Notes: a model not told the origin generated them from the letters alone. Numbered from the stretch's first letter, positions 1-3,646 are shown. The stretch: DNA of 3,646 nucleotides from a virus (IMGVR_UViG_2737471819_000028:1-3646), one strand, 5' to 3'. Translations and numbers: made by a program.

Positions 1-192
1 ATGATCGGACAAATATCAATTGTTAGACCGGGAGCATGTGACGATCGCGAAATACGAATAATTATTCGTCTGGCGATGGGGAAAACAATAACAGCTCTCA
101 TTACTCCAGAAAATCTCGCATTAGCGTTAACAGGAAAGTCAGACCTACCAGTAGACATAAAGCTGCGAAATATTGAGATTAAAGTGAAATAG
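1..192 (+). CDS. Hypothetical small protein, possibly the 3' end of a longer gene running off the window edge (63 codons visible)
   Basis: Open frame from position 1 to TAG at 190-192. An ATG sits at position 1, but the ribosome-binding site and any upstream extension are outside the window. The stop is 2 nt before the ATG of the next gene, suggesting translational coupling. No recognisable motif. Confidence 0.4.
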   Translation: MIGQISIVRPGACDDREIRIIIRLAMGKTITALITPENLALALTGKSDLPVDIKLRNIEIKVK

Positions 193-194
193 TT

Positions 195-1130
195 ATGAAT
201 ACTCTTACCAAAGAATGGTTACAGAACACGATTACCAGCATTGAGTCAGCACGGGATGAAATACCGTTCGGACTCGATGAAGATCAAAACAACATGCTTA
301 CCGCATTAAAAATTGCACTGGCATCGCTGGAAGCAAAACCAATAGGTGCTTTCCACATTGCAGAACAGCAGGTCGATGGCACAAGTGACTACATCAAGGA
401 TGGGGAATGGCCTATTGATAATGGGATTATTGAAGTATACGCCGCCCCTCCAATGCCAGTAGTACCTGAAGAAAAACCAATGCCCAACCCTCTTAAAATG
501 TACGCGGTCGATGCTGTTGCCGCTATTGCAGAGGTGAGAGGCTGGAATGCCTGCCGAGCCGCCATGCTTCATGCTGAGCCTGTAAGTAATAGTGATGAGT
601 TACCGCTGGACTATCTGCAAGGCCATAAAGACGGTCTGGAGTGGGCGGCGCAACAGGCAGAGGCCAATCATCCGCAAACAGGTGACTGGTTGTACGATGA
701 CCCAATCGAGCTTGCCAGGGCGATTCGCAAAGGTCCGGATATTCCTGAATTTAAGTCAGTATCTGTTGATGAGGATGATAACTTCTACTCGTGGTTTGGC
801 AGGTTCTGGTATGAAAATTATCAGAAAAATAATTACACAACATCTGCAAAACAGATGCTTGGTACGATGGCTGAATTTGCCTATAGGGCAGGTAGAGAGT
901 CGGCAGCGCTGGCTGGCAACTCTCCGGTAATTCCGGATGGTTGGATAAGCTGTAGTGAGCGAATGCCCGCTCAAGATGATTGGATTTTAATTTCTTCAAA
1001 GCACGGCGAGTATATGGCAGGACAGGTACAAGGGGAATACGTGGAGTTGAGCGACGGCACTTTATCGTGGTTAGGGAACGCCTTGTTCTGGATGCCTCTA
1101 CCAGAACCGCCTCGATTAAAGGAGCTATAA
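195..1130 (+). CDS. Phage-associated protein of unknown function, 311 aa, strongly acidic, with a C-terminal DUF551-like domain
   Basis: Longest non-integrase ORF, ATG at 195, tandem stops TAA TAG at 1128-1133. The C-terminal ~70 aa (DGWISCSERMPAQDDW...GEYVELSDG...WLGNALFWMPLPEPP) match my recollection of the DUF551 signature found at the C-terminus of enterobacterial prophage proteins. A Pro-rich linker (AAPPMPVVPEEKPMPNPL, about nt 441-494) separates an N-terminal region from the rest. A manual count gives about 49 D+E against 23 K+R. The Shine-Dalgarno is weak, consistent with coupling to the upstream ORF. Confidence 0.8.
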   Translation: MNTLTKEWLQNTITSIESARDEIPFGLDEDQNNMLTALKIALASLEAKPIGAFHIAEQQVDGTSDYIKDGEWPIDNGIIEVYAAPPMPVVPEEKPMPNPLKMYAVDAVAAIAEVRGWNACRAAMLHAEPVSNSDELPLDYLQGHKDGLEWAAQQAEANHPQTGDWLYDDPIELARAIRKGPDIPEFKSVSVDEDDNFYSWFGRFWYENYQKNNYTTSAKQMLGTMAEFAYRAGRESAALAGNSPVIPDGWISCSERMPAQDDWILISSKHGEYMAGQVQGEYVELSDGTLSWLGNALFWMPLPEPPRLKEL

Positions 1131-1244
1131 TAGTGAACTATTATATCTATTTGTATTAAAAGAGTTTTTATAAAATAAATCTTCCAAAGCATGTAAAAAC
1201 ACTGTTAATCTTAACGTGTGTGAAACGTGAAGAGAGGTGTTGAA
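1131..1244 (+). promoter_or_regulatory. AT-rich intergenic region with a strong Shine-Dalgarno and candidate promoter/operator elements for the downstream small gene
   Basis: Much more AT-rich than the flanking coding sequence (TATTATATCTATTTGTATTAAAAGAGTTTTTATAAAATAAAT). Contains TTGTAT (1151-1156) and TATAAAAT-like -10 candidates but with no clean 17-bp spacing. Direct repeat AACGTG at 1213-1218 and 1224-1229, 11 bp apart. GAGGTG Shine-Dalgarno at 1234-1239, 5 nt before ATG 1245. The promoter assignment is tentative. Confidence 0.3.
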
Positions 1245-1526
1245 ATGAGCATTCATGATTTGTGTGAAGATCAAGAGCAATGGGCTATGCAGACCCTTAT
1301 GGGATCAGGAGTTCTTGCAAGGTGCAGAATCCATAACGATGTAATTTTAGACAGCGGAAATGATGCTTCTTCTGCTTATAAATTAGGAACTTACCTATAT
1401 CAAAAAGATAATAGCTGCAACTTATTCAATACTCTTACTGAAGCCCGCGACGCAATAAAGGATGCATATGAATCGTATTGTGGGATCGATGATTGCCCAC
1501 AATGCTCAAAATACATTGACGATTAA
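1245..1526 (+). CDS. Hypothetical small acidic protein (93 aa) with a C-terminal CxxxxCxxC motif
   Basis: ORF in the track starts at GTG 1227, but the in-frame ATG at 1245 is preceded by a strong Shine-Dalgarno (GAGGTG, 5-nt spacer), so 1245 is the preferred start. Stop TAA at 1524-1526. The protein ends ...YESYCGIDDCPQCSKYIDD. Net acidic by manual count (about 16 D+E against 7 K+R). No family recognised. Confidence 0.6.
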   Translation: MSIHDLCEDQEQWAMQTLMGSGVLARCRIHNDVILDSGNDASSAYKLGTYLYQKDNSCNLFNTLTEARDAIKDAYESYCGIDDCPQCSKYIDD

Positions 1527-1545
1527 TAATATGAACAAGTAACTA

Positions 1546-1573
1546 TCCTCGCACTCGCGGGGATTTCTTTTAT
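1546..1573 (+). terminator. Intrinsic-terminator-like hairpin downstream of the 93-aa gene
   Basis: Stem 1546-1552 (TCCTCGC) pairs with 1557-1563 (GCGGGGA): 7 bp with one G-U wobble, loop ACTC. Followed by the T-rich tract TTTCTTTTAT (1564-1573). Lies 20 nt after the stop codon. Confidence 0.5.
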
Positions 1574-1576
1574 CTG

Positions 1577-1601
1577 AACTCGCTACGGCGGGTTTTGTTT
1601 T
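1577..1601 (+). terminator. Second, tandem terminator-like hairpin abutting the next gene's ribosome-binding site
   Basis: Stem 1577-1583 (AACTCGC) pairs with 1588-1594 (GCGGGTT), loop TACG. T-tract TTTTGTTTT runs to 1601. The core (CTCGC-N4-GCGGG plus T-run) is nearly identical to the hairpin at 1546-1573. The T-tract runs directly into the GGAG Shine-Dalgarno at 1604-1607. Confidence 0.45.
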
Positions 1602-1613
1602 ATGGAGATGATT

Positions 1614-1913
1614 ATGGCCTGTTCAACATTCAACCCTCTAACGTTACAGAAATACCAGCCAGACCCTGAAGATTTATGCTCACTGTGTGGCGGAAATCAT
1701 GGCAAAGCCGCCATGATCGAATGTAAAGACAAAATCCACATTTGCCTTAATTGCGTTGATGTCCTCGTTGATATCAAAAATGAGAGAGAAGATAAAAAGC
1801 GTAGCGAGGCTGTTCGCGCCTTAGATTCATGGATGCGAGATGGGTATAGTGCCGCGCAAATTTATGACTTAGCAATATCAAAAGGCGAAATACCAGGAGT
1901 GCGCATCGAATAA
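1614..1913 (+). CDS. Small zinc-ribbon-like protein (about 99 aa), function unknown
   Basis: ORF 1602-1913. ATG 1614 has the best Shine-Dalgarno context (GGAG at 1604-1607, 6-nt spacer); ATGs at 1602 and 1608 are in frame but lack one. Stop TAA at 1911-1913. Cys pattern CSLCGG-x12-C-x6-CLNC (CxxC...CxxC) is typical of a Zn-ribbon or treble-clef fold. Small Zn-binding proteins are common in this position in lambdoid prophages. Confidence 0.6.
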   Translation: MACSTFNPLTLQKYQPDPEDLCSLCGGNHGKAAMIECKDKIHICLNCVDVLVDIKNEREDKKRSEAVRALDSWMRDGYSAAQIYDLAISKGEIPGVRIE

Positions 1914-1953: not shown

Positions 1954-1978
1954 AAGCCGCCTGATGGCGGTTTTTTCT
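1954..1978 (+). terminator. Rho-independent terminator between the Zn-ribbon gene and xis
   Basis: GC stem CCGCC (1957-1961) / GGCGG (1966-1970), loop TGAT, extendable by A-T and G-U pairs to about 8 bp. Followed directly by TTTTTTCTT (1971-1979). Canonical intrinsic-terminator architecture, about 40 nt after the upstream stop and about 20 nt before the xis start. Confidence 0.65.
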
Positions 1979-2335: not shown

Positions 2336-3646
2336 ATGGCGAATTCAGCCTATCCAGCCGGCGTTGAAAATCACGGAGGAAAACTCCGAATAACGTTTAA
2401 GTACAGGGGTAAACGAGTGCGCGAAAATCTTCGCGTGCCCGATACACCGAAAAACAGAAAGATCGCTGGTGAGTTAAGGGCTTCGGTCTGCTTTGCAATC
2501 AGAACAGGAACGTTTGATTATGCCGATCGATTCCCTGACTCACCTAACCTGAAGCTATTTGGCCTGGTAAAAAAAGATATCACCGTCGGTGAACTGGCAC
2601 AGAAATGGCTTACTCTGAAAGCAATGGAAATCGGTAGTAACGCCTTAAATCGTTATCAATCAGTGATGAAAAATATGCTACCGAGGCTTGGTCCTGGCAG
2701 GCTGGCGTCATCGATTACAAAAGAAGATCTGCTGTTTATCAGGAAAGATTTACTGACCGGGGAAAAGGGAAGCAGGAAAACCAGCACGTCCCGAAAAGGA
2801 AGAACCGTACCCACAGTGAACTATTACATGACAACAACAGCCGGAATGTTCAGCTTTGCCGCCGAAAACGGGTATCTGGAGAAAAACCCGTTTAATTCAA
2901 TAACACCGCTGAGGAAATCAAAACCAGTGCCGGATCCACTGACCAGAGATGAGTTTAGCCGTCTCATTGATGCCTGCCATCATCAACAGACCAAAAACCT
3001 CTGGACAGTGGCTGTTTTTACAGGGATGCGACACGGTGAAATTGCCGCACTTGCATGGGAGGATATCGACCTGAAAGCTGGCACGATAACAGTGCGACGA
3101 AATTTTACAAAAATAGGTGATTTTACGCTACCAAAGACCGACGCAGGCACTAACCGGGTTATACATCTTCTGGCACCAGCAATTGAAGCACTTAAAAACC
3201 AGGCGATGCTTACTCGTCTTAGCAGGCAGCATCAGATCACTGTTCAATTACGCGAGTACGGAAGAACAATTTTGCACGAGTGCACTTTTGTTTTCTGTCC
3301 GCAAATCGTTCGCAAGAATCACAAGGCGGGTATTAACTACGCGGTAAGCTCCATCGGAGCGACATGGGATTCAGCAATAAAAAGAGCGGGTATCCGATCC
3401 CGTAAAGCGTATCAGTCACGCCATACCTATGCGTGCTGGGCTTTATCTTCCGGAGCAAACCCGACATTTATTGCATCACAGATGGGGCACTCCAGCGCCA
3501 GCATGGTCTACAATGTTTATGGTGCATGGATGCCTGAGTGCAGCGTGACTCAAGTTGCCATGTTGAATAATGTCCTTAATGCCCGTGCCCCAGACGTGCC
3601 CCAAAGTGACCAGGAGGATGAAATAAAATTATATTTTTCAAAATGA
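2336..3646 (+). CDS. int: Phage tyrosine integrase (site-specific recombinase) with N-terminal arm-type DNA-binding domain, Rac IntR-like
   Basis: Tyrosine-recombinase catalytic motifs are readable in the translation: TGMRHGE (Arg I), LPKTDAG (Lys), YQSRHTYACW (Arg II/His), QMGHSS (His) and MVYNVYGAW (Tyr nucleophile). The N-terminus GKLRITFKYRGKRVRENL...FDYADRFPDS is typical of the arm-binding domain of Rac/IntR-type integrases. ORF track starts at GTG 2312; ATG 2336 is preferred because AGGAGG (2326-2331) precedes it. Stop TGA at 3644-3646 is the window end. Confidence 0.93.
   Translation: MANSAYPAGVENHGGKLRITFKYRGKRVRENLRVPDTPKNRKIAGELRASVCFAIRTGTFDYADRFPDSPNLKLFGLVKKDITVGELAQKWLTLKAMEIGSNALNRYQSVMKNMLPRLGPGRLASSITKEDLLFIRKDLLTGEKGSRKTSTSRKGRTVPTVNYYMTTTAGMFSFAAENGYLEKNPFNSITPLRKSKPVPDPLTRDEFSRLIDACHHQQTKNLWTVAVFTGMRHGEIAALAWEDIDLKAGTITVRRNFTKIGDFTLPKTDAGTNRVIHLLAPAIEALKNQAMLTRLSRQHQITVQLREYGRTILHECTFVFCPQIVRKNHKAGINYAVSSIGATWDSAIKRAGIRSRKAYQSRHTYACWALSSGANPTFIASQMGHSSASMVYNVYGAWMPECSVTQVAMLNNVLNARAPDVPQSDQEDEIKLYFSK

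Follow-up and report, generated by a model that had tools for sequence, protein, structure and literature searches.

In phage lambda, the exo-xis region comprises delayed-early genes that are transcribed from the promoter pL. The equivalent ("ea") region, downstream of exo-bet-gam, is the setting of the gene described here, which lies at positions 195..1130 (+ strand) of a 3,646-nucleotide (nt) stretch of viral DNA, IMGVR_UViG_2737471819_000028:1-3646, referred to below as the window. Its 311-amino-acid (aa) product is an ordinary member of a very large, catalogued family of shuffled early genes of lambda-like prophages, the EaA/DUF551 family, and is a chain of five small modules, A-E, joined by short conserved junctions. 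The protein is classed as already known because both the family (DUF551, EaA, phrog_60) and a protein that differs from it at a single residue (NCBI protein P0001; S267 vs Y267) are catalogued. DUF551 is a portable domain that is also present in the Ea22 V2 protein of Shiga toxin (Stx) phages (PMC10834534), and two reports (PMC3824215, PMC4699033) describe exo-xis genes as altering lysogenisation and induction, particularly during oxidative stress. Searches of the literature on DUF551, yfdS, EaA, and anti-defence screens of lambdoid accessory genes yielded no functional study of the family beyond those of YfdS/YfdT and Ea22 V2.

Among the closest described systems, EaA of phage P22 and 933W L0065 (phrog_60), the latter annotated as "similar to EaA protein of bacteriophage P22", occupy the same slot as the window gene, between the recombination genes and xis-int. 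They share with its product the AGNSPVTPDGW junction, a C-terminal DUF551 domain ending in WMPLPEPPQEV, and an N-terminal module with an IAL.SLE motif. L0065 differs in lacking modules B, C, and D and is 40% identical over 82 aa, namely the DUF551 part, whereas the window protein has C and D. The features shared with EaA-type genes are the early slot, on the pL-operon strand, and sequence similarity. The latter is module-wise only, as tblastn matches in Salmonella and Stx phages named EaA or Eaa1 cover either aa 240-307 or aa 1-65. Phage records of homologues are named EaA, Eaa1, or "DUF551 domain-containing protein".

Ea22 V2 of Stx phages (933W L0140) is likewise a mosaic exo-xis-type protein with an acidic C-terminal part, and its DUF551 domain is joined via the same GNSPVTPDGWISCSERMP junction as that of the window protein. 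An exhaustive search with aa 96-245 gave 886 clusters at 50% identity; architecture counts refer to the 150 best-scoring cluster representatives, and the Pfam scan to 73 relatives. An Ead/Ea22 N-terminus is joined to the module C region in 4 of these 73. The window protein differs from Ea22 V2 in having neither an Ead_Ea22 domain nor a coiled coil, and its prophage carries an Ea22-like pseudogene separately, upstream of the gene. PF13935 (Ead/Ea22) has no match in the window protein at E ≤ 1, whereas it is present in the 4 relatives and in L0140. The pro-lysogenic role of Ea22 is not transferable to the window protein. The "63 amino segment" described for Ea22 variants of Stx phages (PMC10834534) was suspected to be module C, which comparison with 933W L0069 and L0140 ruled out.

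In the K-12 element CPS-53, YfdS is a stand-alone DUF551 protein and YfdT a stand-alone A-type module with the QQEVK tail of the family; both are acidic (pI ~4.9) and, unlike the fused window protein, are encoded by separate small genes. Multicopy yfdQ-yfdR combined with yfdS or yfdT inhibits DnaA-dependent replication initiation, yfdS and yfdT being interchangeable, and deletion of yfdS results in H2O2 sensitivity (PMC4776307). YfdT (L007 5512-6179, with yfdS) has the layout MTTFTNKELIKEIKERISSLEVRD...EIALVSLEVEP...QQEVK, and the literature describes it as motif-free.

The five-module division rests on the agreement between the alignment of relatives and the DNA breakpoints. Megablast pieces in E. 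coli genomes end or start at gene nt 117-141 (in the module A region), 241-261 (at the linker), 346-380 (at 346 and 377-380, in the module B region), 552-557 and 712-730 (at module D), 773, and 917, and these breakpoints are the protein module borders. All modules are given below on the + strand.

Module A (aa 1-80; 195..434; phrog_3323 and phrog_5117) is a variable N-terminal module. It comprises a helical hairpin (aa 6-46), at whose end stands the conserved IALASLEA.P motif, and then a short strand region. Several mutually unrelated alleles occur in alignment A1 and have this motif in common. Module A is tethered to the remainder by the junction AAPPMPVVPEEKPMPNP (aa 83-99; 441..491), in which Y82, P85, P86, V89, V90, and P91 in and beside the linker are invariant in alignments A1 and A2. 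With 7 prolines in 17 residues, it bears out the Pro-rich inter-domain linker of the initial annotation, which had also proposed a C-terminal DUF551 domain. Module B (aa 100-127; 492..575) ends in the junction GWNACRAAML, is matched by phrog_14306 at aa 96-130, and is found in 11 of the 150 representatives at 60% coverage, on either side of module C. Module C (aa 128-185; 576..749), AEPVSNSDELPLDYLQGHKDGLEWAAQQAEANHPQTGDWLYDDPIELARAIRKGPD, is a constant core that is conserved across the family and has no Pfam family. Module D (aa 186-240; 750..914) is recognized from the alignment and the DNA breakpoints as an optional, aromatic-rich helical insert. It is present in about 35 of the 150 representatives, preceding or following C. 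Relatives of ~250 aa, a common form exemplified by P0065 (on 205 contigs), lack it.

The most widely shared piece of DNA is the junction AGNSPVIPDGWISCSERMP (aa 238-258; gene nt 714-773; 908..967). In about 23 of 60 records sampled across the ranking, 45-60 nt of this junction at 93-100% identity are the sole match, and the records that share nothing else include genes annotated as dATP/dGTP pyrophosphohydrolase. The occurrence of a junction stretch on its own in so many genomes indicates that the junctions act as recombination joints. The junction AGNSPVIPDGWISCSERMP leads into module E (aa 249-306; 939..1112), the DUF551 domain, which ends in WMPLPEPP and for which an SH3-like barrel, small and all-beta, is predicted. 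At aa 249-306, the protein aligns with positions 1-67 of the 68-position Pfam profile of DUF551 (PF04448) with an E value of 3.2e-9 and a score of 37.9 bits, above the gathering cutoff of 22, which confirms this assignment too. No other Pfam family matches the protein; its N-terminal ~230 aa have no family in Pfam, NCBIfam, or PADLOC and fall into PHROGs families of unknown function. Likewise, no PHROG with an assigned function was found for the protein or for 73 diverse relatives. The 11 tryptophans (3.5%) lie mostly in the conserved junction motifs (GWN, EW, DW, DGW, and FWMP).

The most conserved element of the family is the 58-aa module C rather than DUF551. It is present in 148 of the 150 best-scoring representatives at 78-97% identity and is located anywhere from residue 1 to residue 309 in proteins of 137-491 aa, while DUF551 occurs in only about half of the relatives scanned. 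Module C of the window protein and its copy in a phi80-type nin region differ by 10.5 synonymous and 5.5 non-synonymous changes (dS 0.36, dN 0.04), and the resulting dN/dS of 0.115, from this one pair of sequences, indicates purifying selection on the protein sequence. AlphaFold2 predicts the module to be helical with low confidence, and neither the Pfam scan nor a search of the 73-sequence profile against Protein Data Bank (PDB) chains returned a match. The phi80-type copy came from a match in a K-12 derivative that was suspected to be YfdT and proved to be the nin-region gene. Neither the constant core formed by module C nor the nucleotide-conserved junctions were found stated in the literature searched; both are modest additions to the description of the family and not a new kind of system.

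The family is large and freely shuffled. A homologue search returned at least 8000 related proteins. Of 5426 complete E. coli genomes, 2713 contain pieces of the window gene, in up to 10 places per genome, and only 5 contain the full module combination. Module order is not fixed: besides the usual B-C and C-D, the orders C-B and D-C are seen in 8 and 4 representatives, respectively, and near-solitary modules occur, as in P0215, which consists of D and E only. The Pfam matches in the 73 relatives are DUF551 (34), Ead/Ea22 (4), a MazZ-type pyrophosphohydrolase (1), and the Lar zinc ribbon (1). In P0193, P0217, P0244, P0157, and others, DUF551 gives way after the GNSPV.PD junction to another C-terminal module, a ribbon rich in Cys and His (C.C..CRPV...CP.CGNKRCPHANDHRNAC) whose tail is PAAPQQEVK. 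Only in P0246 is module C joined to a restriction-alleviation zinc ribbon of the Lar type. The phi80-type prophage of E. coli EPI300 has its family member (L006 3668-4387) just after replication gene P, within a nin region that also carries a Lar gene (L006 6529-6735). The nin-region copies place the family in both early accessory regions of lambdoid phages.

Structure prediction gives confidence to the two ends of the protein. The full-length AlphaFold2 model, built with 54 close relatives, has a mean predicted local distance difference test (pLDDT) score of 48.6; its confident parts are the helical hairpin at aa 1-48 and five strands at aa 250-300 (pLDDT ~80), with values of 62-82 for aa 1-50 and 78-82 for DUF551. 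Modeling of aa 96-245 with 72 diverse representatives yields a pLDDT of 50.4 and helices without confident packing. Foldseek finds no match in the PDB at E ≤ 1e-3, the middle-region model being too low in confidence for a meaningful fold search. The weak top matches are to Hfq/Sm and Tudor folds (probability ~0.9, ~50 aligned columns, TM score 0.5-0.6 on the target structure) and are assigned to DUF551 because their length and all-beta nature fit this domain. The model thus suggests that DUF551 is a small SH3-like barrel. In BFVD, the top matches are DUF551 proteins of many unrelated phages, 5 of them at E ≤ 1e-3, which agrees with the beta-rich fold. BFVD also contains a weak match (E 3e-3) to B2ZXW8 of Ralstonia phage phiRSL1, a protein annotated as Lar with a DUF551-like domain. 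No PDB chain matches the whole protein in sequence.

These features somewhat favor, at slightly better than even, the view that the window protein is a rare recombinant of the EaA/DUF551 family, an early protein built as "beads on a string" rather than as one integrated fold, with modules that bind host factors. The beads-on-a-string arrangement is suggested by the free module order, the solitary occurrences, the tethers rich in Pro, and the absence of any overall fold predicted with confidence. In this arrangement, each module would be an independent small unit that binds a host macromolecule, and the protein, like other exo-xis proteins, would adjust the physiology of the host soon after infection or induction. 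On the basis of the exo-xis, DUF551, and YfdQRST literature, a modulator of early development that binds host factors is preferred, with replication or stress pathways as the best lead; the sole experimental handle is the YfdQ/YfdR-dependent effect of YfdT and YfdS.

A comparable arrangement was reportedly described in 2017 by Iyer, Aravind, and colleagues for polyvalent proteins of phages and conjugative elements, in which independent small modules are said to be fused in variable order and number and also to occur alone, as in the present family. Polyvalent proteins are typically very large and contain recognizable enzymatic anti-host domains, whereas the modules here are 30-80 aa long and have no known activity.

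Several considerations weigh against a host-factor-binding modulator. The functions of the protein and of the module alleles are predictions from sequence and analogy, and functional transfer from YfdT and YfdS is weak because the likeness of YfdT to module A is confined to the IALASLE motif (13 aa, E 0.37) and YfdS aligns no better than E 4.3. YfdR alone bound DnaA in the study of YfdQRST (PMC4776307). Shallow alignments, and not flexibility, may account for the low model confidence at aa 49-247, the free module order could arise if many members were non-functional products of recombination, and the dN/dS of the core comes from a single pair.

Non-functional recombination, applied to the window gene itself, would make it a chance in-frame chimera with no selected function as a whole. 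Its full arrangement is as rare as noted above, the first 45 codons are called a pseudogene fragment by the NCBI Prokaryotic Genome Annotation Pipeline (PGAP), and the Ea22-like pseudogene lies just upstream. In E. coli 2014C-3061, PGAP splits the gene at window 195-356 vs 357-1130 (L001 9001-9135 and 9163-9936) into this fragment (aa 1-45) and a separate 257-aa coding sequence that begins at an ATT codon, window 357, and is identical to the window protein over aa 56-311. The split is probably an artefact of homology-guided calling on a mosaic gene, given that the frame is open, that the core is under selection, and that relatives sharing the N-terminus continue in frame downstream (alignment A1). 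The gene is real: it starts with ATG and runs for 311 codons without a stop, for which the chance at the base composition of the window is ~7e-9, in line with the 311-aa product of the initial annotation. Since, in addition, none of the five modules is incomplete, many relatives join this N-terminus to the same downstream sequence, purifying selection acts on the core, and the start is coupled to the upstream open reading frame (ORF), a mere by-product of recombination is quite improbable.

The composition of the protein had suggested a DNA mimic or an anti-restriction role. The manual counts behind that suggestion (49 D+E against 23 K+R) are exact, and the protein has a pI of 4.40 and 23 prolines. 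It is acidic, although "strongly" overstates the case: at -0.084 net charge per residue, it is exceeded by 3 of the 29 other annotated proteins of the 19-kb neighborhood, namely Gam (-0.102), an Ea8.5-like protein (-0.097), and YccJ (-0.093), and only the Ea8.5-like protein has a lower pI (4.3). Acidity is shared across the family, with pI values of 4.11-4.63 among the 120 matches listed, and agrees with the acidic C-terminal domains of Ea22 (PMC10834534). T7 Ocr is, like the window protein, an early phage protein with net negative charge. In composition, the only property compared, Ocr reaches -0.239 per residue (taken from the T7 record), so the charge density of the window protein is one third of that of Ocr; the most acidic 60-aa stretches reach -0.17 and -0.33, respectively. 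ArdA-type mimics were set beside the protein by description only, the charge figures compared being those of Ocr. Because Gam has a similar charge density, composition neither sets the protein apart nor excludes mimicry.

Neither Ocr nor any other DNA mimic or anti-restriction protein is among the fold or sequence matches listed from the PDB, BFVD, and profile searches. Together with the charge density, this speaks against DNA mimicry, while the multi-domain nature, DUF551, and the lack of an assigned function stand from the same interpretation. The Lar zinc ribbon (PF14354) is also not found in the protein by Pfam, and the sequence contains only 2 cysteines. The idea of a DNA mimic or an anti-restriction or anti-defence factor, in which type I restriction-modification, BREX, or some other host defence would be blocked by the protein or by a single module, is retained as an unlikely alternative because of the Lar and MazZ-type fusions and the arms-race-like shuffling. 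It would fit the conserved low pI, the Gam-like charge density, the position in an early accessory region, and the heavy exchange of modules expected of conflict genes. The associations with Lar that bear on it are the zinc ribbon fused to module C in P0246, the weakly matching phiRSL1 protein, and the Lar family gene that shares a nin region with a module-C protein; dATP/dGTP pyrophosphohydrolase domains of the MazZ type also occur in fusion with DUF551.

The window forms the left arm of a lambdoid prophage of the 933W type that is integrated at wrbA, and E. coli 2014C-3061 matches it at 99.9% identity. In this genome, the order is cIII, kil, gam, bet, exo, DUF1317, DUF1382, a hypothetical gene, a TraR/DksA-like gene, the Ea22-like pseudogene, a 63-aa ORF, the gene under study, an Ea8.5-like gene, a 933W L0063-like gene, xis, int, and wrbA. 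The gene had been described as the largest accessory gene next to xis-int; apart from the integrase gene, no ORF of the window is larger, but it is not directly adjacent to xis, since the two small Ea8.5-like and L0063-like genes intervene. The 63-aa gene upstream (1..192, + strand; phrog_1222; hypothetical protein WP_106904343.1) ends in a TAG at 190-192. The ATG at 195 follows this stop by 2 nt, the start being translationally coupled to the 63-aa ORF. In its last 35 residues, that ORF is similar to the C-terminal end of a family that PHROGs labels DNA methyltransferase (E 2e-5).

Upstream of the gene, the + strand has no predicted sigma-70-like promoter. The whole window contains 2 promoter-like sites, against 7.5 expected from shuffled sequences, and 11 terminator-like sites, against 3.5 ± 1.8 expected, with the excess downstream of the gene. 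Many terminator-like and few promoter-like sites fit an antiterminated early operon, and the ATG/stop spacing, the lack of a promoter, and the downstream terminator excess agree with read-through from an upstream early promoter. Delayed-early transcription from pL is presumed by analogy with lambda, and position and coupling suggest expression early after infection or induction.

This pattern also bears on the possibility that the gene is expressed from the prophage as a defence or superinfection-exclusion gene against other phages. Accessory regions of prophages are known as hotspots of such genes, and the family is highly variable and multicopy (up to 10 places per genome). Because no promoter-like site precedes it on the coding strand, the gene is unlikely to be expressed in a repressed lysogen; an enzymatic or membrane domain is lacking, PADLOC-DB gives 0 families at E ≤ 0.1, and NCBIfam gives no match. 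The defence-system reading was rejected on the PADLOC result and the missing promoter-like site and is highly improbable.

The neighborhood of the gene is itself composite. Window 908-909, at the DUF551 junction within the gene, is where likeness to the Stx2 phages EH2086 and F578 sets in, and likeness to 933W starts at window ~1540; these mosaic joints make the window itself a patchwork. The spacer 3′ of the gene (window 1131-1244) has 27% GC. The Ea8.5-like gene (window 1227-1526; PGAP start 1245) is identified by PF20735 (E 1e-15) and has a Cys-rich C-terminus; it is followed by two tandem terminator-like hairpins (window 1545-1595). A 103-aa ORF (window 1602-1913) is identical to 933W L0063, contains CxxC...CxxC motifs, and belongs to PHROG 3680, a family of unknown function; its match to the ClpX zinc finger (E 0.015) falls below threshold. 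A strong terminator-like hairpin precedes xis (window 1954-1973). At the end of the window, the integrase stop overlaps the wrbA start in the host chromosome (L001 12449-12452; window 3643-3646), and the prophage end thereby provides the 5′ end of the wrbA reading frame.

Beyond the recombinant early protein favored here, it is conceivable, if unlikely, that the EaA/DUF551 family as a whole is a combinatorial cassette system, in which host-targeting modules of 30-80 aa are reshuffled via nucleotide-conserved junctions into new multi-target inhibitors, with module C as a hub that binds one invariant host protein. The cassette pool would then comprise the A alleles, B, C, D, DUF551, the Cys-rich ribbons, and Lar-like ribbons, and lambdoid prophages would be able to build inhibitors rapidly, possibly of restriction or other defence systems. 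The window protein alone changes nothing; its modest uses are a lesson in annotation and module C. Annotation pipelines mis-split mosaic genes of this kind, here into a pseudogene and an ATT-start coding sequence despite an open frame. Module C occurs in hundreds of otherwise unrelated architectures and is a small, concrete target for work on the partners of exo-xis proteins and on the part that the exo-xis region may play in the induction of Stx prophages.
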